A stretch of 63,485 nt of DNA, the filler included, from Kipferlia bialata (lineage: Eukaryota), in assembly GCA_003568945.1 (NCBI GenBank). It is 7 parts of 7 records of this genome, joined end to end, with 100 filler letters (N's around TTAATTAATTAA, not from the genome) between each part and the next. Parts side by side here need not be neighbours in the genome. Positions count along the whole stretch, not along the records: positions 32,405 to 44,898 come from BDIP01001077.1; 6 more parts are not named here. The stretch is one strand, 5' to 3'. Position numbers and translations under genes: made by a program. The notes beneath the pieces are model-generated. The model saw only the letters and a list, made by a program, of their open reading frames with translations, did not search any database and was not told where the DNA came from. Each line of letters starts with the position of its first letter. Position 1 is the stretch's first letter. This document shows, piece by piece, positions 6,299 through 60,696 of the stretch.

Positions 6299-6339
<41 letters not shown>

Positions 6340-6929: not shown

Positions 6930-6968
<39 letters not shown>

Positions 6969-8298: not shown

Positions 8299-8346
<48 letters not shown>

Positions 8347-12522: not shown

Positions 12523-12622
12523 NNNNNNNNNNNNNNNNNNNNNNNNNNNNNNNNNNNNNNNNNNNNTTAATTAATTAANNNNNNNNNNNNNNNNNNNNNN
12601 NNNNNNNNNNNNNNNNNNNNNN
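12523..12622. other. Artificial contig spacer
   Basis: 44 N + TTAATTAATTAA (stops in all six frames) + 44 N. Confidence 0.99.
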
Positions 12623-15700: not shown

Positions 15701-15860
15701 CTAACTCCCCAGATCCAGAAGTACATCAACGACCCCGAGTTCAAGCCCGAGATCATTGCCAAGAAGAGTGTGGCTGCCACCTCACTCTGTATGTGGGTAC
15801 GTGCATGTGTATCTCTATTTTCATTTGAATATATATGTACCTTTGAACCAAAGTCAGTGT

Positions 15861-15909
<49 letters not shown>

Positions 15910-18900: not shown

Positions 18901-20652
18901 TCGCCCAGGTACATATACTGCATGTACTTAGTTCACTATACATCTTTCATAGTTATTGGCATGTGGTTATGTGTCATTGTAAATACAATTCTATGTGTTG
19001 CCGTCTCACTCCAGACTTCCCAAGCCAGCCACCGCCGCTGGATGGCTGTCTGACAAGATGTGGCTCGACATCAACGACCTGGACCAGCTAGGTATCTTTC
19101 TCTATGCTCACTCTCTCTCTCTCTCCCTCTCTATAACCCCAGGTGCCTTCAGAGGCATAGCCGCTTCCTTTGACTCTGTGGAGGGACTCACCATCTGGAG
19201 GTCATACTTTGACAGCAACGACCCGCACCTGCACGCTCTGCCAGAGGTATGTATTCTCTCTCTCTCTATGAATACATGTTCTTACAATGACCCATATGTA
19301 CTCTGTATATCCCTATATGTGCTCCGTATGTGTCTATATCTCACCCCCAGCCCTTCGAGTCCAGCCTCGACTCCTTCCAGAGGCTGCTGCCACTCAGGTG
19401 AGGAGATAGCATGTATCTCTCTCGTTCTCTCTCTCTATTTATGTATGTATATGTGCGTGTGTGTGTGTACACATATACTCCTCACCCCCAGGTGCCTCAG
19501 ACCAGACAAGGTTGAGGACTACGTCATAGTTCTCTCTCTCTATGTCTTTCTCTCTATATATATATAGATGTGTGTGTGTGTACTTATGGATATTGTTCAC
19601 CCCAGGTGTCTGAGGCCCGACAAGGTCGAGGACTACGTCATTGAGTTTGTCACCAAGGACCTCGACGCACGTTTCGTTGAGCCACCCACATTCGATATGG
19701 CACTCTCCTACCGGTACGGTCTATCTCTCTCTATATTTCAATATCTCAATTTCCCCCAGTGACTCTAACTTTCTCTGTTAGTTATAGTTTGCATATCTGA
19801 CTTCCAGCGACTCTAACAACGTCACCCCTCTTGTGTTCGTCCTTAGCTCCGGTGCCGATCCAGCATCTGCCCTTGTGAAGTTCGCCCAGGTACATACTGC
19901 ATACATATTCTTTCGTGTAGAATCGTTATCGCGAAACTTAACCTTCAGGACAGCAGAATGGGCTCCAAGCTGTTCTCCATCTCTCTTGGACAGGGACAGG
20001 GAGGCCCTGCCACCAAGATGATCCAGGTACTGCCGCCTGTCTCTCTCTCTCTCTTCAATGACGCGTACTGGACTGCATACATTTCATGTATATGCAAATA
20101 TTACTATTATTATTATTATGTATATCTTACCCCTTAGGACGGTGCTGAGCACGGACACTGGGTGCTGCTCCAGAACTGTCACCTGGCTCTGTCCTGGATG
20201 TCAGGTACAGTCTCTCCCTCCCCCCACCCCTTCGACCCCTCACTATCCCATGCTACAACCCTATTTACACATTATGCCATTATATATTCATACTCACCCC
20301 TAGAGTTGGAGCGCCTGGTTGAGAACCTCCAGGGTGACCCATCCTCGGTGCACAGGGACTTCAGGTACTGTAGTATATATATGTATATTAGTACATATTC
20401 ACAAGCACTTCAGATACTATTACTCTCGCTTTCCTCTCTCCACTTGTGTACATATTGTTCCCACCCCCCAGGCTGTGGCTCACCTCGATGCCCTCCCCCA
20501 AGTTCCCAGTCTCAGTCCTCCAGGTACTATCTCTCTCTATCTCTCTATATCTGTATGTATATTAGTAGTTCTTGCGGTCCTATACATACCCATCCTAACC
20601 CCCTAGAACAGTGTCAAGATGACCAACCCTCTCTCTCTCTCTCTCTCTCTCT

Positions 20653-20692
<40 letters not shown>

Positions 20693-22678
20693 TCTAACCC
20701 CCTAGAACAGTGTCAAGATGACCAACGAGCCCCCCCGTGGACTCAGGGCCAACCTCATCAGAAGCTACAAGGTACAGCGATGTATATGTGTGTGTATATG
20801 TGTGGCTATATGATCTATTCTCTCTCTGCTATGCTCATCAGGAGCTACAAGGTATAGTGTCTCTATGACATACTATCCTCACTCCCTCTCTCTCTCTCCT
20901 GTTCTCACCCCTAGGGTTACGATGACCGGTTCCTCGACGAGACATGTGTCAAGCAGGTGGGATTTGTGTATACGATTGTATTGTGTGTCCTATATTCATA
21001 TATTACCAGCATTCTTTTTATTTCTCTCTTTATCTCTTCCCCTTCCCCCCTTCTCACTGTCAGACGGAGTACAAGAAGATCCTCTACGGTCTGTCTGTGT
21101 TCCATGCCATTGTGGTCGAGAGAAAGAGATACGGTGCACTGGGTACGGTGTAATGTTACTTCTCTGTCTTATTATGTCTGGTAATACTTCTTCTAATCTC
21201 TAACCTCAGGTTTCAACATCCCCTACGAGTTCACCACCGGTGACCTTGACGTTTGCATCAGGTATATATATATACACATTTGTTAATATTGTCTTTGGGA
21301 GGGTAGTGTCGCATAGATCAATGGTTTCATCAGCCTCTCATTAACCTCTCATTTTCTCTGCTCTTTTGTCATTAACGTCTCCTTAACCCCCCAGACAGCT
21401 CACCCTCCTGTTGGAGAAGTACGAGGAGATTCCATTCTCCGTCATCAGGTTCCTCGTAGGTAGGGGGAAAGGGTCCAGTAATTCAAAAGAGAATGGTGTA
21501 CTATTCTCTGTTGACATAGCATCGTGTGAATAGTATCTTTGATTATTCCAATGCCAGGCCAGATCAACTACTAATCTTATGATTCATCTATTCTGATATA
21601 AATGTATATATATATATATATGTAAATCACCATTCTAACGATCCAGGCCAGATCAACTACGGAGGCAGGGTGACCGATGACCACGACAGAGTGACCCTGC
21701 TCACCATCATCGATGACTATGTCAACGATGGGTGTCTGGAGGAGGGGTACTCCTTCACACCGGACAAGAGCATCCAGCAGCTGCCTGCCAACGACCAGAG
21801 GTATATACATCTATATCAATTGTTTACTATACATCTAACCCCCCCAGGTCCTACCTTGAGACCATCAAGCAGATGCCCATAAATATACTAGTTGTGTATG
21901 TATAATAATTAATACATATTTACATTTAATAGTCTAACCCCAGGTCCTACCTGGAGACCATCAAGCAGATGCCCATAAATATACTAGTTGTATATTATAT
22001 ATATATATATATACATCTAATAGTCTAACCGTCCAGGTCCTACCTTGAGACCATCAAGCAGATGCCCATGACACCCTCCCCAGAGGCATTTGGGTTCCAC
22101 CCCAACGCTGCCATTTCATCCAGGTATAGTGTATATATATACATACTTGAGTGTGCATATAGAGTATGTATACTCTGACTCCTAGGAATGCCGAGACCAC
22201 CCATGGTGTATATAGTATAGTGTATGTATACATCATACACATATTCAATATTGTATATAGTGTATATATACATCCTCTGACTCCTAGGAATGCCGAGACC
22301 ACCCAGCTCTCTCTCTCTCTCTCTCTCTCTCTCCCCCCCCCAGTAGTACAGTATGTATAGTACACATATTCATTGTCTATATACTCTAACCCCTAGGAAT
22401 GCAGAGACCACCCAGCTCTTCTCCATCCTGCTGTCCCTCCAGCCCAGACAGAGCTCTGGCGGTGGTATCTCAAGGTTAGTATGTCGGGCTCCTCTCTTTC
22501 TCTCTCTCTCTCCATATATAGGTATTGCCTTACCTTAGGGAGGACACCATCATGCAGACTGCCGAGTCTCTACTGGAGTCCCTACCTGAGCAGTACGACA
22601 TCCAGACAATCGAGGGGCAGTACCCCACAAAGTGAGTGGTACTATTGTTCTCTCTATTTCCCTCTCTATATATACATA

Positions 22679-22726
<48 letters not shown>

Positions 22727-24266
22727 TTAGCTACAAGGAGTCCATGAACACTGTGCTTGTGCAGGAGTGCATCAGATACAACAAGCTCCTCTCCGTCATC
22801 AGGGCCTCCTTGATCAACATCATCAAGGCCGTCAAGGGTATCGTCATCATGAGTGCTGAGCTCGAGCAGGTATGATAAGCATGTGTACTAATAGTCTATT
22901 ATTATGAATGCGTATATATACAGTGTTGAGGTGCAGTGATGTAGATTTTGGGCAGAAATTGTGGAGACTGTTTCTTGTACCCCACCCTTCCAACCCCTAG
23001 GTGTCTGACGCTCTGTTCAACAACACTGTGCCTGGTCTGTGGGCCAAGAGTGCATACCCATCCCTCAAGAGCCTGTCTACATGGTACGGCTAGTATATAC
23101 ATTCACCACTATTGTATATATATGTTTGCAACTATAGTATATACTCTAACCCTAGGTTCGTTGACCTCCGTGCCCGTTGTGACTTCATCACCCAGTGGGT
23201 CAGGGACGGACCCCCCAAGGTCTTCTGGATCAGCGGACTCTTCTTCCCACAGGTACATAGTCTCTCTCTCTCTACACTGTGTATTATGCCCCTTCCCTAC
23301 TCTCTCTCTCCCTTACTAACACCAGGCCTTCCTCACCGGTACCCTCCAGAACTTCGCCAGACGCCATGTCGTGCCCATCGACACAGTCTCCTTCTCCTTC
23401 CATGTATGTGGTTATGATGCTTATGATTCTTATGTTTCTATGTATGTGGTTTCTATAGCTCTCTAGATTCTTCAGTTCCAAGTTTTTAACTAAATTTACT
23501 TCAGGTCCTTGATGAGCAGTGTCTAGGTCCTAGTATAACTTCATTTATTACTATTGAGTTTCATAATATATTGACTTCAGGTCCTTGACGAGCATGGTCT
23601 AGAGGGAGAGCCAGATGCGGCACCTGTCGATGGATGCTATGTCAGGGGACTGTACATCGAGGGGTGCAGATGGGACTGGGACCACCACGTGCTGGCAGAC
23701 AGTAGACCTAAGGTATGTATACTATCGTATCTCTTCTGGTTTAACAACTCCTTGTGGACTACTTTAGTGTGTGTAATTGTATTACTGGTCATCCACACTA
23801 TATTCTCTCACTCTCTCTTTCTACGAATTCAATCCCTAACCATCAGGAGCTCTACACGGCCATGCCCATCATCCACCTGCTGCCAGAGGCCAACCACAAG
23901 CCACAGGTACCATTCTACACAAACAGTAAATTACTATATACATTACATGAATTATATAGGAATCCCTCTCCAGTGTGTTTGCATACTCTTACTCACCTCT
24001 CAGCCTGGCACCTACAGTTGCCCTGTGTACAGAACCCTGACCAGAGCCGGTACCCTATCCACAACAGGTTAGTGCATATGTATACATACAAAGATACTGC
24101 AAGTAACAGTCGCAACCTCATGAGTTTACGGTAGAATTATGATTTCTGCTCCCTCTCACCTCCAGGTCACTCCACCAACTTCATGCTCATGATCGACATT
24201 CCCTCCAGCCGCAAGCAGGCTGTGTGGGTCAAGTCGGGTGTGGCCATGTTCGCAGCACTCTCCTAA
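12716..24266 (+). CDS. DNAH1: Axonemal inner-arm dynein heavy chain, DNAH1-like: AAA4, stalk/MTBD, AAA5, AAA6 and C-terminus (5' partial, about 60 exons)
   Basis: Spliced peptides [134 protein letters not shown] and [24 protein letters not shown]...[11 protein letters not shown](24264-24266). The dynein call is secure; the DNAH1 subtype is from recalled similarity. Confidence 0.95.
21835..22425 (+). repeat. Two triplicated acceptor + exon-start units inside dynein introns
   Basis: cag|gtcctacct(t/g)gagaccatcaagcagatgccc occurs three times (about 21846, 21942, 22036). ctag|gaatgc(c/a)gagaccaccca occurs three times (about 22183, 22285, 22393). Confidence 0.95.
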
Positions 24267-25131: not shown

Positions 25132-25231
25132 NNNNNNNNNNNNNNNNNNNNNNNNNNNNNNNNNNNNNNNNNNNNTTAATTAATTAANNNNNNNNNNNNN
25201 NNNNNNNNNNNNNNNNNNNNNNNNNNNNNNN
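25132..25231. other. Artificial contig spacer
   Basis: N run + TTAATTAATTAA + N run. Confidence 0.99.
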
Positions 25232-25295: not shown

Positions 25296-25430
25296 GGTAC
25301 CATCATTGAGGTGGATGTGTCTGACCTAGGCCTGGTGACCCAGTCCGGCAAGGTGGTGTGGGGCAAGTACGCCCAGGTGACCAACCACCCCGACAGGGAT
25401 GGGTGCATCAACGCCATCATGCTGGTGTAG
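25296..25430 (+). CDS. NSA2: Ribosome biogenesis protein NSA2, last exon (5' partial)
   Basis: After ctcaccccag: [47 protein letters not shown], the conserved NSA2 C-terminus. Confidence 0.95.
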
Positions 25431-25932
25431 ACAGGGGGCGGTGCATGCTCCCTCCACCCATGGGGTGTGCAGGGGTGTAGGCCGTACTGTCCTGCCTTGT
25501 CCGTATGGCATCCCCTGCTCTTTGTCAGGCCGTGGTACACCCCCCGGCACTGCCCATGTCATCTATCTTTATTTAGCCGATCTTGCGTCGCGTGTGGGTG
25601 TATATACATATAGTTCTTGTGTGCCTGCCTCCCACCTGATACTGCGTTATACGGGTGGCAGGCCAGTGTAGTTTGTGTCTGTTGGGTATCCTCCCCCAGG
25701 CTGTACCCCTATCGATTAGGGCGCCGGGGTTTCAGGGCCTTGTGATGTGATAAATTTCCGTTGTTGTTGTTGTCTTCTGGAGGAGTGAATGGGTGTCTTG
25801 AAGTGTTAGAGTCGGCTCTGAGTCAGAGGCTCCGAGTCGCTCAACCACTCGAGGCTCTACACCCTTTTCTTCTGTGTTTGCGACTGTTTGTGGATCTAGA
25901 TATGCCTCTATCTAGGGCACCGGAGAGAGAGT

Positions 25933-26649
25933 ATGGACAGTGCTGGTGATGATGCCCCCCTCTTCGGAGGGCAGGGTGCTACTGGCGGGTATGACTCCGC
26001 TGTGACGTCCCTTGACGACCTGATGGCTGCTGTGGGAGGCGTTGTGAGTGAGGATGTGGCCAGACAGTCAGACAAGGTGGCAGAGACCATCCAGGCACCT
26101 AGGCCGGTGGTGTCCGGACCAGCAGCTCGCAGGGCACGCCAGGCAGCCACCAGGGAGAAGGCCGACCGTGATGTGTCCCGGTGGGCAGGATACGTGCACA
26201 CCAATGATATGAAGGTAGATTGGGTTACTATACGCACCATCTCAGTGGAGTGGTTGTCTCATACCGGTAGTTGCACGATTTGGGTCTGTGGTATGGTATA
26301 TTAGCGTATAGCACGGTATATCTCTGTTACGTCTGGTGTTGCAGTATCACTTATGTATCCATACCTCATACGCCCACCCTCAGAAGAACCACGTCTATGG
26401 AGACTCCACCGCCAAAGCAGGACACAGCCTTGCATTCGCTACACAGATGAGGTGGGTATGACGTGCGCGCGTGGATATATATATACATAGACGTTGTGTG
26501 ACTCAGGTGCTGTCTATCGTATCTCTCCATCCTGACTCTGTCTGACCCCTAGGACAGAGACATCCCTGCAGTCTGAGATCGCAGCTGTGCTGGCAGGGGC
26601 TGGCCTTGTCCAGAACGGGAGGCCCCAGCTCACAGAGGAGGAGTCCAAG
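25933..26649 (+). CDS. UTP14: U3 snoRNA-associated protein 14 (UTP14)-like, first three exons (3' truncated)
   Basis: TIQAPRPVVSGPAARRARQAATREKADRDVSRWAGYVHTN / ...TSLQSEIAAVLAGAGLVQNGRPQLTEEESK| resembles the UTP14 N-terminal block. I could not find the expected downstream KIKSK exon. Confidence 0.65.
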
Positions 26650-28829: not shown

Positions 28830-29857
28830 GTATGTATACTATCTCCATATACTGGCACAGTCCTAGTCCCCGTCACTCGTCATCCCAATACATATGTACA
28901 CACTATACACGATATGTATCATACATATACATACATACCTAGTCCCCCCTTAGGTACATCACTTGTCATGCCCAGTGCCCTGGCACAGTATATATCGATA
29001 TATATATATATATATACCATCATATGTATACACTATACATGCAACGGTATATACCTAGTCCCTTCCCATCACATGTCATACCCAGTGCCCTGGCACAGTA
29101 TGTCTGGACCTGCTCGTGGAAGGACAGCAGCTCGGTCTGATAGTAAGCATCACACATCTATGTATATAACACATGTATAAACTAGTAAACTGTAATACAC
29201 GAGTCTGAAGGACAGCAGCTCGGTCTGGGGTCGAGAACACTCTCTGTCTCTATACTAATCTATCTATATATATATACACTATTTTACATTATATCATTAT
29301 ACTCCTTTGCCATGTGTATATATGCACTCATACATACATTCATGTATATCAGTAGGTATACATGATACACGTACCCTCGTCTCCTGTGCCATGTGTATGT
29401 ATGCACTCTGGGGGTTCTTGTCCAGAACACACCGGTACAGCACACTGAGGTGAGGGGAGAGGGGGGGGGGGGGTCCGTTGGGGTAGATGAACTACTGTAA
29501 TACATATAGATACATTGATACAAAATACGTGATACACTGGTTAAGTAATGACTCGATTATCCACCTAGCCACATTTGACAACCCTGTCAATGCCCCCCTG
29601 AGTGCCCATGGGTGTACTCTGCCTGTCCTGACACACACACTGGACAGGGTGGACACTAGGGTGGAGATCCTGGGGTTGGTATATATATATATATATATTG
29701 AGAGAGAGAGAGAGAGAGATAGAGAGAGAGACTGGACAGGGTGGACACTAGGGTCGAGATCCTAAGGTTGGTACCTATATATATATTGAGAGAGAGAGAG
29801 AGAGAGAGACAGACTGGACAGGGTGGACACTAGGGTGGAGATTCTAGGATAAGTATG

Positions 29858-29889: not shown

Positions 29890-32199
29890 TAGAAGTGACA
29901 CACAGGCTGGACAGAGTGCATACTCTGGTGGATTTCCTATTGTTAGTATATGTGTAGATACAGTGTCCAGCTTTGAATCAGTAAGGAATGGAGACGGTCA
30001 ATGCGACCACTACACCAACAGTTGGTAATTGCATAAAGGTGCCTCGAAGTATCCACCCGGACACCTAAAAGAATGCATAGCTATACACTACCCTATGTAC
30101 CTGAGTCCAAATGGCCCCTGTGCCACTGACCCCGACATAGAGGGGGCCTGGGGGTGAGGAAGACGACGTATATATACACATACATAGTAGCCACCATATG
30201 CATCTTCAATTCAATACTACGGATATTGAACACACATCCCCACCTGCCCCAGTGGACTGAGTGCCTTAGGCCATTTACTACCACATAAGTATATATATAT
30301 ATATATTTGTATATATACACCCATACCTGCCCCAGTGGACTGAGTGCCTTGGCCTGGAGGGCGGACAGGTGCTGCAGGGTCTGGGGTGGATGTTACACAG
30401 ATATACAGTAAAGAATACACACACACAAGTATATGCATATAGACACTATATACATATATATATCCATACCTCTGCACTCTCTGTGTGGAACAGGTATGCC
30501 AGTATCTCTCCACAAGTAGTACAGGCAGTGCACAGGATCTGAGGAGGGTGAGTGTTTGTGGTGCTATTGACACTATGTACACTGTACATTGCGAATACCA
30601 ATACATACCTCTGGGTCCTCGACTGCATCCACTGTCTCGACCAGTACATATACATATCTGATACACAAACATACATATCACTATATATATATATAGTACA
30701 GTACTCATATACCTCAGGGTCCTCGACTGCATCCACAGTCTGGGCCAGTATACGCACAACTGGAGGTGAGGCATGGGAGGGGGGTTGCACACAGATAGAG
30801 AAAACCCGTTCCCACATTGATATATGAACGCAGTATCAGTATCAGTAGTGTACCCTTTCTATACTCTCTGAAGATATGGAGGTCTATCTACAGCAGTATA
30901 TCACTCCACTCTATTATGAATAGTACTATACTCACACTCCCATACCTGCATCAATGAGAGCCGGGGCACTCCACTTCTCTGTGTCCTCATCCCCATGGAG
31001 GGACAGGGCCAGTCTACAGTGAGAGGGCAAATACATAGAGACTCTATGTGATAGAGAAGTAGTATATATAGTATAGAATAGTATATATACTGATACTGAG
31101 TCCTCATCCCCATGCAGAGACAGGGCTAGCCTGGGGTTAGCGGTATTTTCACTTCTATATATGTGTATGAATAGTATGTACAGGACCAAACCCGGCAGTC
31201 ACCACGCAGATACAGGGCCAGTCTACAGCGAGTCAGAGGGGAAGGTATACATACATAGGAGTGTACAGACATCAGTCACCAGCAAGAAGGCACAACTCAA
31301 GGCTATGACAGTATATCGCCAGTGGTTACACTACACTATATCCCCATACCTCTTTCTGAGCTGTATGTGTGACACCAGTGACCTAAGGACACATACACTG
31401 GGGGTAGGAGGAGAAGGGGGGGGGGTAGGAGGGTTGATACAGAGGACTGGCTACATTCCCAAACATGGTCAATGTACTCTCTTGAGACTCCTACACGTAC
31501 AAATCCGAGTGGTCCACCGACCCTTGCTGGTCAGTCCAGTGCGACCTGGGGGTGAGGTACGTACACGGGTGTGTATGTATATGTGTGTGTGTTTGGATGT
31601 ATATGAGATATATGAGATACTCCCTGGGTCTGTCCAGTGCGACCTGGGGGTGAAAAGAGAACATACAGATGTATGTATGTATGCATATGAGATACTCAAC
31701 AGTCTGTCGACTGTGCATAACGTCTAGATGTACCTCAGCGTTGTATCCCGCAACGGCAGGTATAAGTGAATTTATATGTATAATGATATGTATTATATGA
31801 TATGTATCAAACATTGTATGAGTGTATAGTGTGTCATCGATACCTGAGCACTGCGTCCTGCAATACATCAATATATAGATATAAAAATACATAATACACA
31901 CACATATATATACATATATATATATATATAATACATACACACCTCAGCACTGCGTCCTGCAATGCATCACACGAGACAAGCAGGGCATTGGCCTTGCCTG
32001 GCAGTTAGTGAATGTATACTCAGAATACATACTATGACTGTCATTAAAAGGATGGTGGGTGATAGGACAACAGGAGTGCGTTGCCTGTGGCAAGATGTGT
32101 GTGTATGTATATACTGGATACCCACTCACCAAACCGCACTGCCTGCTCTGTGGGCACTAGGTTGGAGGAGGGGGACTCAACAGGGGACAGGGCACGGGC
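28297..32199 (-). CDS. Multi-exon helical protein, weakly Exo70/CATCHR-like C-terminus (5' partial)
   Basis: Spliced ...ISTLVSTLSSVCVRTGRVHPWALRGALTGLSNVASVLYRCVLDK...TELLSFHEQVQTYCAR...GGWTLPPSSVCEGVHLRVALLPYVRCVCGSYWDQFSDACRYTPLDAESVAMLCQHIRKCTRHIGG-TAG. The gene is well supported; the Exo70 resemblance is a by-eye guess. Confidence 0.6.
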
Positions 32200-32304: not shown

Positions 32305-32404
32305 NNNNNNNNNNNNNNNNNNNNNNNNNNNNNNNNNNNNNNNNNNNNTTAATTAATTAANNNNNNNNNNNNNNNNNNNNNNNNNNNNNNNNNNNNNNNN
32401 NNNN
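32305..32404. other. Artificial contig spacer
   Basis: N run + TTAATTAATTAA + N run. Confidence 0.99.
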
Positions 32405-32651
32405 CTCTCTCTCTATGATCTCTCTATATATATGATATGTATGATATATATATACCTATGTATCCAAGAAGGTACAGTGCTATGCATCACCTCTCTCTCA
32501 CACACTTCCTCTCTCACCCCCTCTTCCTCTTACCCCTAGGTCCAGAAGGCCATCTGGGTATCTCTCTCTCTCTCTCTATGTCTCTCTCTCTCTCTATACA
32601 CATATATAGATATCACCGGATATTACATCTGACCCCCCCCCTCACCCCTAG

Positions 32652-35600
32652 GTCCAGAAGGCCATCTGGGCACTGGACGATGACCAGATGTACGAGGTGT
32701 GTATATAGTATACATAGTAATTGCTTCACTATATATATAGGGAGAGAGAGAGAGGTGCCAGATGTACGAGGTAGGAGATATAGTCATATTGTAGTTTATG
32801 TAGTAGTAGTATCATTATGTATATATAGAAGTGATAGTTGTATGGGTACTGGACGATGACCACATGTATATGGTAGATAGGTGTATATGTATGCATAGAT
32901 ATAGTAGCAAGTTAAGGGTGATACACGGACACACTGGCATATGCACTGGATGCGTCCTCCAAAACCCAACCATATTCTTCCGTTTGCGGCCTCTGGGTTC
33001 TCTATCTGGTTTCCCTTACTCCTTTTCTGTCCTATGATCGCAGAGGCTTCACACTAGTACTGTGTGAATACTCTCTATTAGCCACTCTTATCCTTAGGGC
33101 AAGAAGACTCTGTCTCGGGATTACATCCCCGGAATCTATTGTTCTCCTTAATTAATCATTATCATCTCTTACAACCTTAGCCTTAGGGCATCCTATGTCA
33201 TCCTATCATTCTTTATCATCTAGTTGTAGCGACCTTAAGATAAGGCTTAACCTTAGGGCAAGAAGACCCTGCGTGGCATTGTGGCCAGCCAGGCCATTGC
33301 AAGACATGAGGTGGGACTGTATAGATAACATATATCCCAATATGTATGTTTACTGTCAGGTAAACCAAAGGCATTATTCGTGATGTATTCTATTTCTGGT
33401 GCACTCTCTGTGTACTTCAACCCGAGTGTTCGTCTGATGTGATGGAGTATCCATGACCTGGCGAATACATCTGACCCCAGGGCCTGTGTCTGTACACCCA
33501 CCTCCCCTACCTCACCCACTCCTGTGTACCAGCAGTTAAGGTAAAGGCTATACAGACACATACGTATATATACATATATGTTATATATATATATATACTC
33601 ACATCCCATACCTCACCCACTCCTGTGTACCAGCAATTATGGTATGGGCATATACATTCACATGTATATACCTATATACACACAGACATATATATATAGG
33701 GTATGGACACATAGACTCGCATGCCTCTCTGCATATACTCTTCTACTCCCCGCAGTCAAGGTATGGGTCCTGTTTATGTACTGTGTTGTGGAACAGGCAT
33801 CTCTCTGTCTCTCTCTGTGTATCTTTCTTTATATAATGACCTACTTACTAACTCCAGTCACTCTGGAACATTGGTGAAGGCCTACCCAGTGAGAGGAGGA
33901 GTGGCAAGAACGCACCGACATCCAGAGTGACAGCTGCCAGAGACGTCAAGGTATGTATATATATACATATATATACGTATATGTATATATACACACGTGC
34001 AAAGATGTATGTAGTGTATTTGTTGGTAGGATCACTGTCTATCTTTGTGTATATACATGCAGAGTGGCAGCTGCCAGAGACGTCAAGGTATACATATATA
34101 TATATACATAAATATGTATGTGTATATACCTTAGTACACGAGTGTTGTTCACACCCAGGCCGGTGAGCCCCTGACCAGGACATACCTGATAGGGGCACCC
34201 TCCATGACAAGGGCAGAGAGGTATATATATATATATATATAGTATAGACAGAGCATAGGTATATAGTTCTATAGATATATAGTTATTGTGGAGATTGGTA
34301 TGTCTTGTCTATATACCTGATAGGGGCACCCTCCATGACAAGGGCAGAGAGGTATATGGTTTACATACCCTTAACACATCGACACACATATGTGTATACT
34401 CTGCGCATATATATATCAATATATATCTATATATATCCATATATATATATCTGACCCCATAGTACCGAGTACCTGTACCGACCCATATTTATATATATAT
34501 ATATTTATATCTATCTGTCTATCTGTATGTATCTAACCCTATAGGACCGAGTACCTGTGGGAACACTACGAGTTCAAGTGCAACTGTGAGGTATGTGTAC
34601 GGCAATTATACATATATATATACATATATATATGTATACCCTATTCCAGTGCAACTGGGAGGTGTGGTCAGCATTTAGTATTAGCCTCTTACAGGCGCTC
34701 TCAAATACATGTTACATTATTTGTTACATTATATGTAATGTGTAATCTTATGTGATGATTAATATGCTACTGTTGGTATGGTGTTACCCTAAATGATACA
34801 AATTGTCACTGTGTAACCGTAGGTGTGCTCCCTAGAGGGTGATGCCCTGGTCCAGAGTGACATGAACAGGATGAGGCTCAGGGTGCTGAGGGAGGAGCTG
34901 AGGGTGAGACGATATACCATATTTGTACACTATGTATTCTTATACAGTGTATAATATACTGCTGAGGGAGGAGCTGAGGGTGAGATGATACACTATATCA
35001 TTATACATCATTCATAGATAGACCATGCGAGTGAGGAACTGAGGGTGAGATGATACACTCTATATATACACTCTGTATTCACACTCAATTTACCCGTGTA
35101 CCCTGTCAGAGACTAGCTACGGGTGAGATTGTATACTATTACTATTCTACCTGTTATGCCGTATACTCACGCTATCAGGACATAGCCTCAGAGAGGATAC
35201 TATATTATATTAGTCTCTGTCACACCATATATACATATATATATACTAAATATATATCACTCACTATGTACTATATATATATATACATATATATATACAC
35301 TCACTGTCAGGACATAGCCTCAGAGAGGCCAGGGCCTCCAGAGTGCCTATCACTGGCACTGGAGGTATGACTATTGGATCTTATACACTTATTATCAGTG
35401 CCTCGTATGTATCTTCAGATATGTGTATATCTATCTATCTGTCTATATCTATCTATACATATACTGACCTCAGGCCATTGGCATCTGTGTCACAGAGTAC
35501 AGGGCAGACCCAGCATACATGATCAGGTGGATAGAAGCGATGAATACATATATGTGTAAATGCATCAGTTGCTACACTACTGTCGTGGATGGGACTCATT

Positions 35601-37744
35601 GTATCCCATCTTCTTTCTATTATGTGTGCAATATATACTGGCCAACCCCAGAGCCTTTTGCATGTGTATGTGACTATGCATGGACACAACTCTTATTCCC
35701 ATCCATATCTCCCATATTGTCTCTCTGTGTACGAATACCAACCCCAGGGCCTTTTCCTCTGATGCTTCTCTCCCTCTGCCTATATATTTGTATGTAGATC
35801 AAAAGTGTGTTGACACGTACTAGCAAAGTGTAGTCTAGTATGTTAACACCAGAGCCTTCTCGTCTGGCTTCGAGGCTGCCTGCGTGGTTGGGGACGGGGA
35901 GTTGGCCAGAAAGATGATGTACAACATACTGGCCTCGCAGGTACATATCACTAGAGTCATATATATATTATAGGATAGTTTTTAGTGGCATAATATATGT
36001 GGTATGTACAGGAAGATGATGTACAACATACTGGCGTCACAGGTACCCAGCAACACAGTTATGTAACATTGTATTACAAATGAAATGTATTCAGAATGAT
36101 ACTGTACAACTATATGTATCCACACTATAACAATGGTAGTTGACCAGGAAAGTGATGTACAATATGCTGACATCACAGGTTTATATACACTGTATCCAGT
36201 TATAAGATACCATAATCTACATGTTTTTGTATGGAAGTCTATAGTCTCCTGACCCCTAGATGCACACCGAGGGAGGTGGACTGCCACAGCACAAGACGAT
36301 GAAGGACTGGTGCATAAACCCAAGGTAATGTCGCAGTATAATTAGATAACTATATATATACTAATATATATACGAATTCATATATATACATCAATACTTC
36401 GATATATATGCGAGGCCCATGGACTCCCTGGTTTTTGAACGCAAGGTCAGTGTGGTGACTATATAGCGACAAATACCAAGGTAGTGTCTTTTGGTCTATG
36501 CCTTGTCTCACCCCAGCATCCACCCATCCACCCATGTTGCATCCTGTCCCATGAATATGTATGTATATATATATACTATACGTATATATATGTTCAGTTC
36601 CCTGCCTCACCCCCAGCATCCACCCTGTGGCCAGGGCGTTCGGAGTGGTGGTGGAGGCCAAGGTACTATATAATATATGCTATATATACTATATGCTATA
36701 TACTATATAATATATACTATACTGTATCTACTGCACTGTATTTCTGTGGTGGTGGAGGCCAAGGTACACAGTATATATTATATATTATACAATATACAAT
36801 ATGCTATATACAATATACGATATAATATATACTATACTGTATGTACTGCACTGTATGTCTGTGGTGGTGGAGGCCAAGGTACTATATACAATAGACTATA
36901 TACTATGTAGTATATAGTATATAGTATATAGTATATATAGTATATATAGTGTATACATAATATATAATTGGTGGAGGCCAAGGTGCAGTGTATTAGCTCT
37001 CCAAGAACTAATCTTCTATTTGATACTGGCAGACTGCCATTTCTTCTCGGTACTGCTTGCCATGTCCATAGAATCACTTTCATCCTTGTACTTATCCCCA
37101 TCCCCTGCTGCCTGTTATGGCCATCAGTGCGTGATAGTAATAATATGGAGATACTCTGTACATATATACCACTGTCTATATATCAAGTTCTCGTACCTCT
37201 GATAACCCCTAGCCCCTGCTGCCCGTCATGGCCTCTGTGCGTGATGGTGAGTGGGCATCGGTGGCCGAGGAGGTGGGACTTCCCATCATTTGGGGGGACA
37301 GGTACGAAGTAGATACTTATATAGAGCTAGAGTTAGAGCTATATTGCACACAATGGATTGTCTCGAAGAGGTACAGATCACTTAGAGTATTCCTTTAACT
37401 AGGTTTTTTACGTCTTTGTTGGGAATCTACGCTATATTTTTATACTGATCCGCAGGAGTGTTCTCAAGGAGCACGAGAGGGACAGGAGGGAGAGAGTGAG
37501 GCTGGAGGAAGAGGCCAGGAAGGCAGAGGCAGCAGCCAAGAACAAGGTGCCATAGTCACATTACATTCAATACTTTTATCGTATAAGTACTATGTATGTA
37601 TATAGCGTATACCTTAGTGGAAGATGGAACGTATGTAGAGGCTATTGTATTTCATTTACACCCTAGGAGAAGATGCTGGAAAAGAGGCGGAGGAAGCTGC
37701 AGAAGAGGAAGAACAACGCCAAGAGGAGGACAGCCAAGCAGTGA
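32652..37744 (+). CDS. SET-domain protein, SMYD/SET5-like, with post-SET cysteines and a basic coiled C-terminus (5' partial)
   Basis: GLCLYTHLPYLTHSCVPAVK / RVTAARDVK|AGEPLTRTYLIGAPSMTRAER|TEYLWEHYEFKCNCE|VCSLEGDALVQSDMNRMRL matches NHSC.PN, A.RDI..GEELT.SY and F.C.C..C. Ends KRRTAKQ-TGA at 37742-37744. Confidence 0.85.
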
Positions 37745-38246
37745 CGGTTTTGCTGCTACTTGTCTAAGTCTTCAGGATGAATACTACTAGGCCTAGTCCT
37801 AGTATGCTTCTGTGTGCTAAAGTCCGTATTTGTAAATATCGCGTGTTTCACCTGCATCTGTCGTTTCCAGCATACATTGTCGTGAAACACAATCATACGA
37901 CTTTGCAGCACTTTCGAGAACACAGAGGTAGTCCCATTGATGTGGTATTGGAATCTATTGCTTCGAGGAGCACCCACACTGTTTAGATTTAGATACTGTC
38001 TGGCATAATAGCGGCTTCACTGCTTGTCACACATACTCTCACTTGTCACACAAACTCTGACACGGACTGTGTCCTCTGAATAACCTTGATCTCTCCCTCC
38101 ACGACGGGACTGTTAAGACCCTATTGTAAGAATGTGGAGAAAGAGAAACACTGCATGCTCACACGGCACCAATGGGTCTTACATAGAAGTAAAGACACAT
38201 CCATACCTAGAATCCGACTCTCCCTAAAATGCAACTGGTTACAGAG

Positions 38247-41200
38247 TTATAGAGAGGAGAGTATCCATGACACTACCTTATAGGCCGTGTGCATTGCATA
38301 TGCACCCAGGCACCCATAGCCTAGGTCGCTGAACATGACTCCCAGCCACACACCTGGGGTAAGTACATTGGTGTGTGGTCATAGACACCCAGTACGACAT
38401 ACCCACTCAGTGAACTCGTCATGGTAATGAATATGTATCAGTATCTGTGATATATAATTTAGAATGTGTACAATGTGTGTCGGAATGCACTCACCTGTCC
38501 AGTTGCCTGTCATTCCTATTAGTATCAGTGCTATCCGTAGTACACAACCTATCAGAGACAGGAAGGCACCTCGCTGGCCAACACCGGCCTGACATAAGTA
38601 TAACAATATACATATGGTAAAGAGATAGAGAATCGCACATGCTGGTGACCAAATGACAAACGAGATAGGAAACCAGATGTGGTAATACGGCAACGTACCG
38701 ATGCCAGCAGCTGTGTGCCGAAGCTCAACAGGACATACCCGGGTCTGGTGGGTGAGACAAGAACCCACATTGTGTATAAGATACTCGCGCATATATTGAC
38801 GTGACAGGTGATGTAGGTATGTTGCATTGTGGTCCTACCCACCTCATTGCATTGCCCACCCTGACTGCCGTGTTGATGTTGTCCAGGATGACGGAGTCGG
38901 AGCTGAAGAGGGAGACTGGGGGTTAGAGACACTGCAAAGCAAGACTTAGCTGCAAAATATATGGGTTGTCAGAGCTGTATAGGGACACATGGGGTGAGTA
39001 TCGGCGATATATAGATATATCTCGTATCAAAGAGATTCCTAATGCATACTTGGCATACGTATTTATTGTATATATGTACCGAATGTGTAAGGTACTGCCT
39101 CCACTAGAGGCACTAAGACATATACATCGATGTATACGTCATGGCATAGTAGGTGATTAGTGTATATAGAGCAGCAGCACATACCGAATGTGTATGGGAC
39201 TGCCTCCACCAGAGACCACAGGGGCACAAAGACAGCCAGAGCACCCAGGATGACATACTTGCCAGCCTGCTTGACTCTGTAGGTCAGATAAATAGTATAT
39301 ACACACCCATATATATGGTATGTAGAACTGCTTGAACTGTTTGAAAGTGACGACATAGAGGGACTGACATTGATGCACGACACATATTTTAGAGTCAACG
39401 CAGAAAGTCTACACAACTCACCTCTCGCTGTTGTTGGCATGGAAGGCTGCACCCAGAATAGGGACAGCAGCAGTGATGACACCTGGGGTCATGTGCCTAG
39501 ATAGAGAGAACATATAAGAATGAGATAGAGTATGTGAGAAATAGAGAGAGAGAGGTGTGATGACACCTGGGGGTTAGCCTGGTTAGAGAACGTTCCATTG
39601 ACAACACATATCGGAAGAGGAGAGAATAGGTGTATATACTGCTGTGATGACACCTGAGTGTGAGGACATGTCCCCTAGACAGAGAGAACATCAAAAGGAG
39701 ATAGAGAATGTACAAGAGTCCCCGATTAGAGATAAAGATATAGAGAACGAAAGAGAGAGATATAGAGCCGACCTGTGGACGGCAGCACCAGCATGGATGC
39801 CACCCTGTTGACCACCACTGCTATGGCTATGTGGGTGTCAGAGTCGACAGGGCCGTCCACATTGCCAATCACAACTGGGGTGAGGATGGATCAGTGCACC
39901 ACACACACTACGGGAGTATCTCTATCAGGTATTCGGTACCTATCAGCACCAGCATAGTGATCACCGTGGCCATGTTCATGACGTACAGACATACTATATT
40001 CATATTATAGACATATTGTATACATAGAAAATACCAGAAAATATATCAACGTTTTACCTATCAGCACCAGCATTGTGATCACCGTGGCCATTCCCATCAG
40101 GAGGGCAGGGCTGCCAGCCTTGGCTACGGCCTGGTGTCACAGGGGAGGGATATAAATATATATACGAATATATATGAACTTATACATGGTATTGGTCCAA
40201 TAGAGAGGGAAAGAAATTCACCTTGATCTGAGAGAACGACTGTCTGTTTGGCAGTCTCTTGGGTCTAGTGACCTGGATATCAGAGGGCTGACAGAGAGTC
40301 CTGACACAGAGAATACGTTGTAAACGCACAGACACAGCTGGCCACTTGAAATCATTGGGGTATGGTATTTACCAAGTACCTTGACGATGGGTATGACGCC
40401 TATGATTGATGCCAGAAGGAAGGTGAGACCGTAGGAGAGGGGAGGGCCCATAATGCCTGGGATGATAAGGGGATTGAGTGCAGAATATACATATATATTC
40501 ACATGTACATACATATATATAAACATTGATGGATATATATCATAGGAGAGGGCCCATGATGCCTGGGGGGGTAAGGGGATTGAGGGCAGTATATGCACAC
40601 ACATATATATATATATATATAGATACTGATAGATATACATCATAAGAGAGGGGAGGGCCCATGATGCCTGGGGTAAGGTGGAAGAGTAATTGGAAGGTAT
40701 AGTCACAGTGGGTCCGTAGTATATATGTATATCTCCATAGTTTACTTTGCTCCTATGAGATAGAGATTTTGAGTAACTATCTATACAGATACTTTCTCAG
40801 ACAAACCAGTAACAGAATCGATCCCAACCAGTAAGACTAACTCGTAGTGTACACACATAGACATATAGAGTGTACATACCCATGTCCAAGACAGGCCCTG
40901 CCACCCAGCAGAGTACTACCATCAGCATGGCAGAGACCACAGACACTAGTAGAGACAGGGCCTAACGTGAGTGTATATGTATCCACACTTTCAAAGAGAG
41001 TAGCAGATAGTTTGCTGAGTTGGATCTACCTGGTACCCCATCGATCTCAGCAGTGACGTGACCAGCGTGTAGCTGCCAAACCCTATGGGGCCAGCCAGAC
41101 AGAGGGTCATGGCATATGGGCGCATATCAGTACCACTTGATGTGAGAGAGTGATAACTAAGACCAACTGTTCAAATGCTAAGGGACCTGAATCATGTGGT

Positions 41201-44200
41201 CTAGGCAAACGCATAGAAAGAAGTGAACAGCACTTACCCCTCTGTAAATATGAGGCTCCCTGCTGTCCCGATGAGTGTCAGGGCAGCTACAGTTATAAGT
41301 GCAGTCGCTATGCTGATGGTCAGTATACTAAGTAACGTAAAACGAAGACACTACCCAGTAGAATATTCTACGCGGCCACCTGCTCCACAGTCCCTGTCTT
41401 ACTCTCTTCTAAAAGGAAACTACACGATATATATTACTACGCGGTTACCTGCTCCAGAGTGCCTGTCTGACTCTGTTCTGTGTCCCAGCTGTGATGGCCT
41501 GGCCCATGATGGTGCCACTGCCCCTGGAATAAGGGGGAGAGAGAGAGAGAGAGACAGACAGATAGAGAGAGAGAGAGTCACCTGCTAGGCAGCTGTGACA
41601 CTGCCATTATCAATGACCCCAGTGGAGATAGGGTACCCGCCACAGTGAGGGAGTTGCCACCTAGGAGACCTGGGGGTGAGGGTACAACAACTAAGCCCAA
41701 CTAGTTCAAGAGGATTGAATACTGAATCTCCAAGAAGTAGACTCCTGGAAAACTCATTTAGCAATCAGAACGCGGAAGTATACCTACTACAATGATACGT
41801 ATAATGAGGAGTGAACTATTGTATTTGTATTGTGAGACACCCACCTAGGAAGTAGAGCTCTATCAAGGGTATCACTGACACACACAGGAGTGCAATGCAG
41901 TTGGGGGCTGCGTATCTGACAAAGAGGCTGAACAGGGGGGCAGAGCCATAGGCATCGTGCTGGATGGAGACCTAGAGTGTTAGAGGCACTAGGCTAGTAC
42001 CACAAACTATTAGAATTATGAGATGTACATACTTGAATATTTGTAAGAGTAGATATAGAGTACATACCTTGCTGTGAGGTGGACTCTTGTCCGAGGCAGG
42101 TGACACAGCATCCAGCCTGTCCTCCTCCTCGATGGTCTCCATGCACTCCCTCTCTCTCTCTCTCTCCATGATCTGTCGCACGGTCTTGAGATCGGCAGAC
42201 GCAGGGTAGCTGAGCGGTGAGAGGGTGTAATGCAACGAACTAACTCTACAACAATTATGTACATGATGGCAGCACGGAAGTGTGTATGGGGTGCGGCGAA
42301 CATATACATCAATATCTATAGTATGGCGATACATACCTGTACATTGATGACTCTAGGGGAATAGAGAATACATATACTAATATTGTGTAGCTACCTGTAC
42401 ATAGATGACTCTGACCCCTCTCCACTGCTACCACTGGTCTGTCTCTCATCTACCAGCATGGCAGCGAGGTCGGGGGGGACTGGTGTCAATTTATACACCA
42501 CACGATATATGTATATATAAATACATATGTACAAATTTAATACAGATTAAGAAAGTGTGTATATATCATGGCAGCTAGGTCAGGAGGGACTGCGGTAAGG
42601 TGTCTAAGTTACACGTGAGTAGCCCCATATGTAAGTGTTATGCGGGGTACTGTACATAGATATCATAGTCATTCATGCTCACTGTAAGCATGGTTGCTGA
42701 GGAGATTGTGATACAAGGACGCCAGATCTCTCCACCCACCTCTGTACTTGAATGGGTCATCCCCCCTGAGGTGTGTGGAGGTGGGCAGGGTGGACTCCTC
42801 GCCCTCGCCTGGGGTCAGAGTAGACGTCAGAATACATCCTTATATGATACAGAGTGAGAGATAGTATATGAGGAGAGGACAGAACGAGTACCTGGCTCGT
42901 ATATGGATGCCGACTCGAGCACAGACTCAGGCGCCACAGACTTCTGGGGGTGAGAGGGAGAGAGAGAGAGAAGTGTAGATAGTATTATTCAGTTAGTGTA
43001 ACACTCACCCTCCCGCCACCAGGTGGTGTGGGTCCACATGGTCCCCCAGGAGATATGCACTGGGGAAGGGTGTCGGTGCAGGCAGGTTGCTAGGGTCAGA
43101 GAGAGTAAAGCAGGGGTATGAAATACACAGTAGGTAGAGGTATGGAAGGTATTCTAGTATCATGATGAGGGCGTAGCAAAATGAACAGAGAGAGAGAGAC
43201 AGGCTCCTATGCTAAAGCCATATTGTGTTGTTGTGAACGTGGATAAGAAAGGCGTCTGCATATATATATATATATACATATATGGAGAGACAGAGAAAAG
43301 GAGACAGAGAGAGATATAGTAGTAGTAGTATAGATAGTGTCACCCACCCTGACCCCTGTTGGCACTCCCACCGGTGACTTGGCAGAGACAGACCCAGACC
43401 AGTCAGGTCGCTGAGGGTAAGGAGTAATGAGATATGTGTATATGATATGAGTACATATATATATAGACAGGTACACATATGACTGTGCCATGTGAAGAGT
43501 CGGTTCGCTGGGGGTAAGGTGTGTGTGTATAATGTATATATGATATATATGTAGATAGGTATTTACATGGTTATATATATACAATTATCAATCAGGTCGC
43601 TGGGGGGTGAGATGAATGCGCATGATGTATATATATATATATATATATACATATAGAAAGACTAAGACAGATACATACACACATGCACTCACCCGTTGTG
43701 GTCCACCTGGTACATAGCTATGATATATACTATATACACTATACACAGTGAGGTATGTGAATATATGAACACACTATGTCACTCACTCGTTGTATATACA
43801 CTATACACAGTGAGGAATAGAGGAACACACATGCACTTACCCGTTGTGGTCCACCTGGTGACGCATATACTATATGGCATAATAAGTATAAGCCATATAG
43901 ACATGTATACAGAAGATGTACTTAGTGTATCATCCAATCGTAGGCATATATACATGTGATGCACTCACCCGCTGTGGTCCACCCGGTGACACACTCTGGG
44001 GGACACTGGTAGGGTAAGAGAGAAGAAAGAGAGAAAGTATAGACAAATCAAAGACTCAGGGGGACAGTCCTGTGAGTAATAAGGGATTGTGGGCATACAT
44101 GATTATCATATTAAGAAGTACATATGGGAGATGGATACAACATACCCCAGGTTGTATGGATTCTCTGGTATCCTGACTCTCTCTCTCTCCCTCCCTTCTC

Positions 44201-44898: not shown

Positions 44899-44998
44899 NN
44901 NNNNNNNNNNNNNNNNNNNNNNNNNNNNNNNNNNNNNNNNNNTTAATTAATTAANNNNNNNNNNNNNNNNNNNNNNNNNNNNNNNNNNNNNNNNNNNN
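44899..44998. other. Artificial contig spacer
   Basis: N run + TTAATTAATTAA + N run. Confidence 0.99.
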
Positions 44999-45723: not shown

Positions 45724-48700
45724 TCACCCCCCAACCACCCAATATCCAAGCGTGAAGACAACTACCCATCCCACCCTTCTGAGGTATGAATTATAACTGT
45801 AAGACTGTAGGAATGTGTACACATATAGATTCCTAAACCTAATCCCAACAAGCAATTGCAACTCTCCTATGTCTATTAGACCCTGCTCCTCACTTGAATA
45901 CAATACCCACGATAAAAAACCAACAATACATTGGTGGGTAGGTGAAGAGTCCGGATCAAGGAAGAGATAAAGGTCGCTAGTTAGAACCCTGTTCTGACCA
46001 GTGTAAACTGGTCTTGGGAGGAATGGACTACGGAACATGACACTGGAGGTTAGTACTGGAGTCGCTATCTAAAAAGAAATACTCCATGCATACTTATATG
46101 TGCACAACATAGTCAACATACACACCTATCGAACAGCACTGTGACACAGCACCGAGAAAGTCCCTCCTATGCTCCTCTCTCTCTCTCTTTAGTGTCGGCA
46201 CGTCACCAGCAGTGGGGAAAGGGACATTCCTCCTACTCCTTTGCAGCTCTGCCTCCTCAGATAGCGACATGTCACAGACATTTGTCACACAGCCTCGGGG
46301 CAGCTGGTTCAGTATGCATAGAGAGCCAGTGCACTGTCTAAGGGAGAGGTGGGATATGGAGGCAAGTCTTGATGCCGCAACCTGGGAGAGGGGGCCTGGG
46401 GTGAGGATAGTCAGGTCATACTCTATTTACATAATTTCATATGATAGTATACCTAGTGTGGATCTGTCTAGACTGAGTATCGATAGGATTAACTGATACA
46501 TTATATATATATATCATACCTAAAGTTGACCCGTCTAGACTGAGCAGGTTCAGGCTAAGAGGTGGTAGTCCTAGGTTGGGTGTGGGTGGGACTGGCAGAG
46601 AGGTGTTGCCCTTCTTCCTCAGTGCCACCCCATGTAGGACCAGCTCTGACAGGGAGGGGGGGATACCCGCTAAGAGGCTGGGGTTAGGGGGTGTATATAG
46701 TGTTTACAATGCACTATAAGATCAGCATCAGAAGCCGCTGAGAGGCTGGGGTTTGGGGTCTATACCTATAGCCGTATATGTATAAACAGTGTCCTACCTG
46801 CAGACATCCCCCATGTCGAGTTGACAGTCAAACATAGAGATATAGGCATATATAGATATATAGAGAGTGGTATAAGTATAAAAATGCACACCTGCTGACA
46901 TCCCCCATGTCGAGTTGGCAGTCTGACACCTCCAGTCTCTGAAGACAGTCAGGCAGTACACAGGGACTAGGGGGGTTAGAGAGTTGGAGGGGGGAGTATA
47001 TGAAATCAAGATAATGAGTAACTATGGTATCAGTAGAGAGTATACCTCACTGATATGCCGCATCTAGACACCTCCAGACTACCCACATTGTCTGACTGCA
47101 CCCTTTGCCAGAAGACACTGTCTAGCCTGAGAGATCAGAACACACACACATATAGATATATAGAACAGAGAGAGAGAGAGGCACATAGAGGGAGTATATT
47201 TAGTGTCTGACTGCACCCTCTGCCAGAAGGTGTTCATCCTGAGAGTAAGGGTCAGTGTATATAAATATGTGTGTGGGTGTGTGTGTCTGCATATATATAG
47301 AGAGAGAACCTCTACATACCTTATGGTCCTGCCTGACAGGAACATATGGACAGTGGGCACAGAGTATATACATATATATGTACAAAAATATACATATAGG
47401 AAGAGAGAGAGAGTATTCATTTATTCAGAATGCATATAAACAGTATCTATCTAGCACCTTATGGCCCTGCCTGTCAGGCACAGGTGAACAGTGGGCACGG
47501 ACCGGCTCTTGACTGCCCTTGGGCTCTGGCCCAGGGGATGCACACCCACTCTGCTACCACTGCGGCCTGATGGTTAATGTATGTATATATACATATGTGT
47601 ATCTATATAGGTTAATGACAGTAGAGGGATACCTGTCACGTATGGAGATCTCTCTGCCAGCCGTGTGTATGGGTTCCCCCCCGTCTTATTGTAACACCCA
47701 GGGATAGGGGGTACCGCCAATGCCCCACGTCCAGGGGAGCCATAACACGAGGCAGACCTCTTGACAGGTTTGGTCTTGCCAGAAGTAGTAGAGGTAGTAG
47801 TAGTAGTAGGACCCCCTGTCCTAACAGTAGTAGTCTGGGGGGTCTGTACGGGTTGGACACTGCTAGCTGGTACACCAGTACCAACAGCATTAGCACCAGT
47901 AGCAACACCAGTAATAGTACTGGGATTGGCAATGCCACTAGGACCACCATACACCCTTCCCGGTGTACCCTGCATAGCCGCCCTCCTAGTCCTCGGTGAC
48001 CGTATCTGTGGCTCCCTCATCCCATTCTCGTGGGATATGGCAGCTATCACCTCCTGGGCAGTCATGCTCCCAAAGTCAGGCTGACCCTCTCTCTCCCCCT
48101 CACTAATGGGGTCATGCACTGCAGGTCCAGCCCCGTGTCTCTCCACTCTATCCAGATAGTCATCACCATGGGTCAGTCTGGGGGGAAGTACCCGAGGGGG
48201 GGAGCCCTTCCTCACAGGCTGTGCAACCACGTCAGTGACCCCATACAGACCATGTCCCGGGGTGGTGGGTACATAGGGGGTGTACACGTTGGGGGTGGGT
48301 TGCTGCTGGGGTACCGGCTGGGGCTGGGCATAGCTAGTAGGCTGGGGTACTAGCTCTGTGGGGTGTGGCATCAGGGTGGAGGGATCGTACTGTTGCTGCT
48401 GATGCATGTATATAGGGGGTGTGCCCTGGGGCATAGGTGGCATCTGCTGATGCTGCATTGGGGGTATATGCTGCTGGTGCTGCTGTTCCACTGGGGGCAT
48501 ATGCTGCTGGTGCTGCTGGTGTTGTTGCTGTTCCATTGGAGGTATCTGCTGCTGCAGTTGCATTGAGGGTAGATGCTGGTGCTGGTGCTGGTGTGTCTGC
48601 ATAGATGCTACAGGTGCCTGTCCCATATCCATGTGCGTGGGGGAATGCACTGGTACTGACTGATGGTGGTACAGACCCTGGGGGTGACCAGGGTACTCAG

Positions 48701-57488: not shown

Positions 57489-57588
57489 NNNNNNNNNNNN
57501 NNNNNNNNNNNNNNNNNNNNNNNNNNNNNNNNTTAATTAATTAANNNNNNNNNNNNNNNNNNNNNNNNNNNNNNNNNNNNNNNNNNNN
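57489..57588. other. Artificial contig spacer
   Basis: N run + TTAATTAATTAA + N run. Confidence 0.99.
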
Positions 57589-60596: not shown

Positions 60597-60696
60597 NNNN
60601 NNNNNNNNNNNNNNNNNNNNNNNNNNNNNNNNNNNNNNNNTTAATTAATTAANNNNNNNNNNNNNNNNNNNNNNNNNNNNNNNNNNNNNNNNNNNN
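60597..60696. other. Artificial contig spacer
   Basis: N run + TTAATTAATTAA + N run. Confidence 0.99.

Follow-up and report, generated by a model that had tools for sequence, protein, structure and literature searches.

Why should an intron carry imperfect copies of the edge of its neighbouring exon, and why should those copies differ from the exon mainly at silent sites? The question is raised by a 63,485-nt stretch of DNA (the window), joined end to end from seven parts of Kipferlia bialata assembly GCA_003568945.1. K. bialata is a single-celled, marine-type, free-living fornicate for which the available portion of PMC5874029 reports 124,912 GT-AG introns, and the window is intron-rich eukaryotic DNA. 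A sequence-only reading of one SET-domain-like gene had described a series of such copies, termed echoes here, whose divergence grew with distance from the exon while remaining protein-like, and had attributed them to repeated duplication at the exon edge. Across the window, tandem duplication of exon edges into introns is supported, and the protein-like divergence proves stronger and more general than had been stated, with a dN/dS of 0.23 (0.16-0.33 by array bootstrap).

All counts refer to this window and to 11 partial gene models (173 exons, 162 introns) obtained with a small gene finder and hand curation. The models are all stop-free, one window-edge exon having been corrected, and include one GC-AG intron. 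Two of the genes recur throughout:

12716 to 24247, + strand: partial dynein heavy chain gene, echoes in 13 of its 59 introns; the frame-certain subset
32652 to 37546, + strand: SET-domain-like gene, a stop-free GT-AG chain of 14 modelled exons, 8 of 13 introns with echoes

A dynein exon is 100% identical to the NCBI entry 'dynein heavy chain, partial [Kipferlia bialata]' (P0001), and the 60-exon dynein model yields 1630 residues identical to P0001; the public protein follows the exon-proximal splice sites. Exon 16061-16118, followed by the GC-AG intron, keeps the frame in the model and is absent from P0001 (a 17-residue gap). The SET gene, which we take from familiar motifs to be SMYD-type, owes its reading frame to the 14-exon model being stop-free; four of its exons searched singly gave no match in Pfam.

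The ends of exons were compared by alignment with the introns that flank them, all other introns serving as the null. At a score of at least 24, 70 of 324 exon edges matched their own intron, where 2.6 would be expected from other introns. A fixed filter dropped hits scoring below 24 or lying more than 6 nt from the splice edge (15 of 102, two or three of them probably real echoes) and kept 87 echoes, about four of which may be chance. These form 65 arrays (35 donor, 30 acceptor), donor copies lying downstream of the exon and acceptor copies upstream, each within 6 nt of the splice edge. With a second, anchored search added to the alignment search for echo counts, 59 of the 162 modelled introns carry an echo, mostly as single copies. 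Echoes account for most long introns in the window, being present in 54 of 62 introns of at least 150 nt and in 1 of 77 introns shorter than 110 nt. First copies are spaced 58-177 nt away (median 99), with no short units. The GT or AG is intact in 79 of 87 echoes, and indels occur in 6 of 87. Neither tandem exon duplication nor mutually exclusive exons describe these structures, as an echo holds a median of 27 nt of exon sequence and only 2 of 87 (one truncated where the window ends) cover at least 90% of the exon. No shared breakpoint motif was found among the echoes.

Three gene models with 21 introns in all (1549-2271, 6000-8940, and 25296-26649) contain no echo by the alignment method; in the other genes, 22-75% of introns have them. 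Short local repeats number 13.2 per 10 kb in the window and 0.56 per 10 kb in 80 metagenome loci, which are unannotated and do not form a matched control. One metagenome dynein locus, L062 (1318 nt), has 45 per 10 kb.

The differences between echo and exon are concentrated at silent sites. They fall at 71 of 1564 0-fold sites (4.5%) and 96 of 407 4-fold sites (23.6%), a ratio of 0.19, and at codon positions 1, 2, and 3 in the numbers 42, 40, and 146. The silent excess is present in all four bases. The ratio is 0.20 in the 49 single-echo arrays and stays at 0.17-0.22 when any one gene is left out, the signal disappears when the frame is shifted, and dN/dS is 0.21 in the dynein and SET genes alone. 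A copy dead at birth should give a ratio of at least 0.5, because the exon branch alone is filtered. Simulated dead copies passed through the same detector gave 0.54-0.59, a simulated 80% 'allelic' share gave 0.21, and simulated conversion, expansion, and contraction within a single lineage gave 0.49-0.74 in 28 of 28 settings. A neutral dead duplicate is thus rejected. Transition bias does not account for the silent excess either, with dN/dS remaining at 0.20-0.29 for kappa 1-8; nor does a fast exon beside a frozen echo, given that exon-private changes are few (12) and echo-private changes are also silent-biased.

In 51 of the 87 echoes there is no change at 857 0-fold sites, yet 49 of 220 4-fold sites differ (22%). 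Rates at 0-fold and 4-fold sites are uncorrelated across echoes (rho 0.09, n=72), and divergence is overdispersed at 0-fold and not at 4-fold sites; the data do not discriminate between a constant and an exponential model of 4-fold divergence. The GT/AG bases, which played no part in detection, differ at 9 of 174 positions, like 0-fold sites, where about 12% would be expected of dead copies (P=0.002). On the donor side, roughly 40-50% of adjacent intron bases differ, against 60-73% in random pairs (ungapped). Stops make up 3 of 77 replacements, as expected for unselected change, and the replacements present largely look like decay.

The SET gene shows these features at the scale of single codons. 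The exons listed here are those of the gene model; a contig from run X2, which is only guessed to be RNA, spans 873 nt of the window (35466-36338) and provides the read-level check.

34823 to 34903, + strand: exon ending ...CTG AGG, with its donor GT at 34904
34960 to 34981, + strand: donor echo 1 of the 34904 donor, identical over 20 exon nt
35029 to 35046, + strand: donor echo 2 of the 34904 donor, 1 synonymous and 1 replacement difference
35108 to 35124, + strand: donor echo 3 of the 34904 donor, 10 of 15 nt matching, with an in-frame stop; anchored search only
35167 to 35196, + strand: acceptor echo of exon 35311, 132 nt upstream of the real acceptor
35311 to 35364, + strand: SET-gene exon, matched by a loose end of the RNA-like contig
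35474 to 35526, + strand: SET-gene exon, also in the RNA-like contig
35737 to 35762, + strand: acceptor echo of exon 35853, 11 of 15 nt matching by eye, AG intact; skipped by the RNA-like contig
35853 to 35940, + strand: exon ending RKMMYNILASQ, its own donor used in gene model and RNA-like contig
36009 to 36044, + strand: donor echo 1 of exon 35853, 3 synonymous and 0 replacement differences, GT intact
36135 to 36180, + strand: donor echo 2 of exon 35853, longer than echo 1, 10 differences in 44 nt, with a stop at its 5' edge
36260 to 36324, + strand: next SET-gene exon, also in the RNA-like contig

The sequence-only reading located these copies correctly. The exon end at 35907-35940, the echo at 36009-36042 with three synonymous changes, and the echo at 36146-36178 (RKVMYNMLTSQ), each followed by GT, are all as claimed, and the coordinates given for the donor GT (34904) and for its echoed GTs (34980, 35045, and 35123) are correct to the base. 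Its description of the outer replacements as mild only is less secure. The tendency is weak (58% versus 46% with BLOSUM>=0, P=0.03, without transition weighting), and the stops of the outer echoes had been omitted: the 35123 echo reads AGA GAC TAG CTA CGG, with a stop immediately before Leu-Arg, and the echo at 36135-36180 contains GAG>TAG along with GCC>ACC. The 35045 echo also carries AGG>AGT (Arg>Ser). A weaker acceptor echo of exon 35853 lies below threshold at 35640-35660, and an acceptor-dead echo with a 1-nt insertion (37102-37138) still has 3 silent changes.

Silent differences of this kind probably predate the death of the echoes, and we therefore favour, at a probability of roughly 0.6, the reading that echoes are snapshots of the exon as it stood in other alleles or in a closely related lineage. 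Duplications would be tolerated only when one splice site is included, the cell keeping the first donor and the last acceptor. Exon and echo would then descend from different alleles, either from birth, if homologues exchanged out of register or a template switch occurred between them, or through a later swap of the exon by recombination. Protein selection would have acted on both lineages during about 80% of the echo branch, producing a 4-fold-site offset of about 0.2, so that two clocks may be at work: a roughly uniform silent offset acquired as working exons, then a short and variable decay once intronic. Arithmetically, the silent offset comes to about 0.19-0.22 (from p4 0.236 and p0 0.045). 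There is precedent for 4-fold diversity near 0.2, the highest reported diversity values being 13-20% in the part of PMC8270832 available. In-frame indels of 3 or 6 nt, by which several echoes seem on visual inspection to differ from their exon (28935-28998, 31621-31643, and 47204-47238 (-)), would fit descent from working alleles. The recombinase Dmc1 tolerates mismatches. A dependence on homologous recombination between diverged homologues, at echo birth or afterwards, would be a plausible engine; according to the accessible text of PMC8516963, metamonads lack non-homologous end joining, and fornicates lack Rad51A while possessing two Dmc1 paralogues and key meiotic genes. A broader extension, which we put forward tentatively and lean against, is that Dmc1-type repair routinely copies patches of about 100 nt from diverged homologues into introns, in which case the genome would hold tens of thousands of fossil alleles.

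Several observations weigh against the allele-snapshot reading. Neither another strain nor another allele came to light: the cluster that holds the dynein protein has one member, the best relatives in a metagenome scan are only 41-59% identical in protein, and across three exons the RNA-like contig carries no variant letters. The cells sampled thus appear to be homozygous here, and the alleles invoked as sources are hypothetical; a hybrid partner or a lost subgenome could have been the source instead. Diversity as high as this reading implies would lie at the upper end of known values. Outside the dynein and SET genes the reading frames are those of our own models, and the 0-fold rate is lower in dynein (2.7% versus 5.0%), although not significantly (P=0.09). 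Under strict age order, the changes that necessarily occurred off the exon number 13 silent versus 8 replacement, or 6 versus 7 (P=0.09) without the array near 62 kb described below. Finally, the ordered arrays of the SET gene, to which we now turn, are not required by an allele model.

The claim that divergence increases with rank from the exon was checked in the arrays of the window. Both series originally quoted are monotonic, since mismatches in the last 15 exon nt number 0, 2, and 5 for the 34904 donor echoes and 2 and 4 for the 35940 donor echoes, and all five multi-copy arrays of the SET gene behave in this way. The 14 multi-copy arrays of other genes divide 4 versus 5 with 5 ties. Overall, divergence is greater in the last copy than in the first in 9 arrays and smaller in 5 (P=0.21), by both methods (16 multi-copy arrays with 2 ties in the alignment search, 19 with 5 ties in the anchored search). 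Rank-1 and rank-2+ echoes have 0-fold divergences of 0.072 and 0.075 and 4-fold divergences of 0.267 and 0.239, respectively. Donor arrays rise outward in 7 cases versus 1, a weak age trend given that the comparison is post hoc and includes the two discovery arrays. Informative sites occur in just one of the five arrays with at least three echoes:

62083 to 62599, - strand: exon plus four donor echoes (the 62 kb array), mosaic, the two nearest copies most diverged and nearly all changes silent

Here the nearest two copies carry 7 and 6 silent changes and the farthest two 3 each. The array had already been noted as non-monotonic; it is in fact inverted and three-state, and fails the four-gamete test at 6 of 10 site pairs. 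With low power and no rank effect on pooled rates, a polarised record is not established and is at best weak.

Repeated edge duplication that pushes older, dead copies of the same lineage outward in order of age is accordingly improbable as an account of the echoes. It draws on the SET gene, the donor arrays, a pairwise count of 16 versus 9, and the two states (AGG and TCA) that the echo at 36135-36180 shares with echo 1 against the exon. The balance of arrays overall and in the other genes does not follow it, and its two predictions, a ratio no lower than 0.5 and correlated 0-fold and 4-fold divergence, both fail; dead copies cannot take the ratio below about 0.5, so the mechanism first offered for the protein-like signal does not produce it. 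Marginally better placed, though still improbable, is exchange within arrays by gene conversion or unequal sister exchange, with selection at the exon filtering what enters and no second allele involved. The mosaic 62 kb array is the kind of structure it would leave, and the available part of PMC3087553 describes the boundary repeats of amphioxus known as mirages as unstable and evolving in concert. Simulated single-lineage arrays never fell below 0.49, however (28 settings of a simple fixation model with one unit length), and the low ratio is seen equally in single-echo arrays.

Present protein-level selection on echoes, through rare or stage-specific transcripts or a programmed swap into the exon, is unlikely, if less so than either of these. 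Low dN/dS and intact splice dinucleotides would also result from it, and the single RNA-like contig says little about rare forms, which contigs drop. Against it stand the short exon portion held by most echoes, the frequency of stops and indels noted above, the exclusive use of proximal sites in the contig, and the fact that neither a GT close to the exon breakpoint nor an AG close to where the echo begins, each present in 20 of 48, is a general feature (no formal null). An assembly artefact, with two haplotypes or strains stitched in tandem, we consider very improbable. In its favour, silent-biased differences are typical of alleles and the spacing is near short-read length. Against it, 0.99 of 577 sampled 31-mers from 32420-38000 are present in run X1 contigs, where about 20 false joins would remove an estimated tenth or so; X1 may, however, be the source of this DNA. 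Also against it, intron-like sequence precedes the echoes, some of which have stops or a dead splice site, and as many as five versions occur in an array, of which only a single one is seen in the RNA-like contig.

The echoes also constitute a natural experiment in splice choice, in which intact decoy donors and acceptors are ignored. In the RNA-like contig, 35526 is joined to 35853 and 35940 to 36260 without a mismatch, the echoes themselves not being covered. The contig uses exon-proximal sites only (the last acceptor and the first donor, in two introns of one gene), and splicing in these two SET-gene introns is thus undisturbed by echoes, as judged from this single contig of a presumed RNA run. 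If used, the intact decoy sites would leave introns of 47-564 nt, the observed minimum being 45. Site choice in introns 35527-35852 and 35941-36259 suggests that splice sites are paired across the exon, in a genome whose introns are short. According to the available text of PMC6679479, Kipferlia has 87 of 174 spliceosomal proteins, and no snRNAs are recognised in it. The 3955-nt contig continues for about 3 kb past 36324, far beyond the rest of the SET gene, and may join a convergent neighbour through overlapping 3' ends.

The window as a whole consists of several contigs unrelated to one another, most of which break off at microsatellites or poly-C/G. They are separated by 100-nt N linkers with a central stop-in-all-frames word (12523-12622, 25132-25231, 32305-32404, 44899-44998, 57489-57588, and 60597-60696). 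A coding-like repeat at 79-860 (-) has a 108-nt period, diverged copies, and no intron signature. At 9933-12296 (+) there is a 787-codon stop-free frame without introns, unusual for an intron-dense genome, with what we take to be a kinase-like motif (HNDIH..N..DF). Judged by eye, the modelled genes at 38200-43400 (-), 45900-47600 (-), and 52200-57200 (-) presumably encode a multi-pass membrane protein, an LRR-like protein, and a TPR-like protein, respectively.

If echoes are allele snapshots, a single genome records past exchange between very diverged alleles, in a group without directly observed sex. On the broader and more tentative reading of routine Dmc1-type copying, a silent-site population diversity of about 0.2 could be read off without population sampling, sex or parasex would be directly evidenced in a metamonad, and the arrays would display exon-definition-like splice choice in an organism whose introns are short and whose spliceosome is reduced. 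Gene finders are misled by echoes, and our own first gene-finder pass called them exons.

Among known systems, the closest are the mirages of amphioxus, which Canestro 2002 is said to have first described. Mirages are minisatellite-like tandem copies of an exon-intron boundary in Adh3, the globins BflGb6/9, troponin C, and PGBD5, occurring at 5' or 3' ends with units of 10-160 bp, splice signals often intact, and splicing undisturbed (PMC3087553, PMC3902484, in the portions available). Mirages also vary in copy number from haplotype to haplotype, are somatically unstable, and have inner units that evolve in concert. Kipferlia echoes share the boundary-spanning unit, the occurrence at both 5' and 3' boundaries, and the GT/AG kept in many copies. 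They differ in belonging to a metamonad protist, in reaching 59 of 162 introns, and in being mostly single copies. Neither a codon-level analysis nor an allele-archive reading appears in the accessible parts of those accounts (PMC3087553, PMC3902484), and the codon comparison used here would suit mirages of other polymorphic species as well. The 37-bp variable number tandem repeat in intron 7 of human F7 is alike in that its first unit spans the exon-intron boundary and its downstream donors are silent, the most upstream being chosen; it differs as a single locus of identical pseudo-donors, with no acceptor arrays or silent-change excess in the available text (PMC1557585). Internal gene duplication with intron gain (the Rogers model; Gao and Lynch 2009 as cited in the available part of PMC3087553) likewise involves short intragenic duplications with splice sites. 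Unlike these, the Kipferlia copies lengthen existing introns and create no new intron or exon. The chicken immunoglobulin pseudo-V, Borrelia vls, and trypanosome VSG archives are untranslated and diverge in a protein-like manner, each serving one antigen locus through a dedicated conversion system. Echoes share the untranslated, protein-like copies but flank ordinary genes such as dynein, and their use as donors is only hypothetical. Leader-proximal growth of CRISPR arrays, the analogy originally drawn, also places tandem units beside a fixed element; echoes lack its consistent polarity and its constant repeat with unique spacers, and no integrase is in view. Searches of open-access full text, assessed for the most part from result lists, turned up no account of such copies in Kipferlia or of a silent-change excess in mirages. 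Echoes are, structurally, mirages and so belong to a known kind of structure; what appears to be new, as far as those searches reach, is their density in a protist and a silent excess that takes the ratio below the dead-copy floor.

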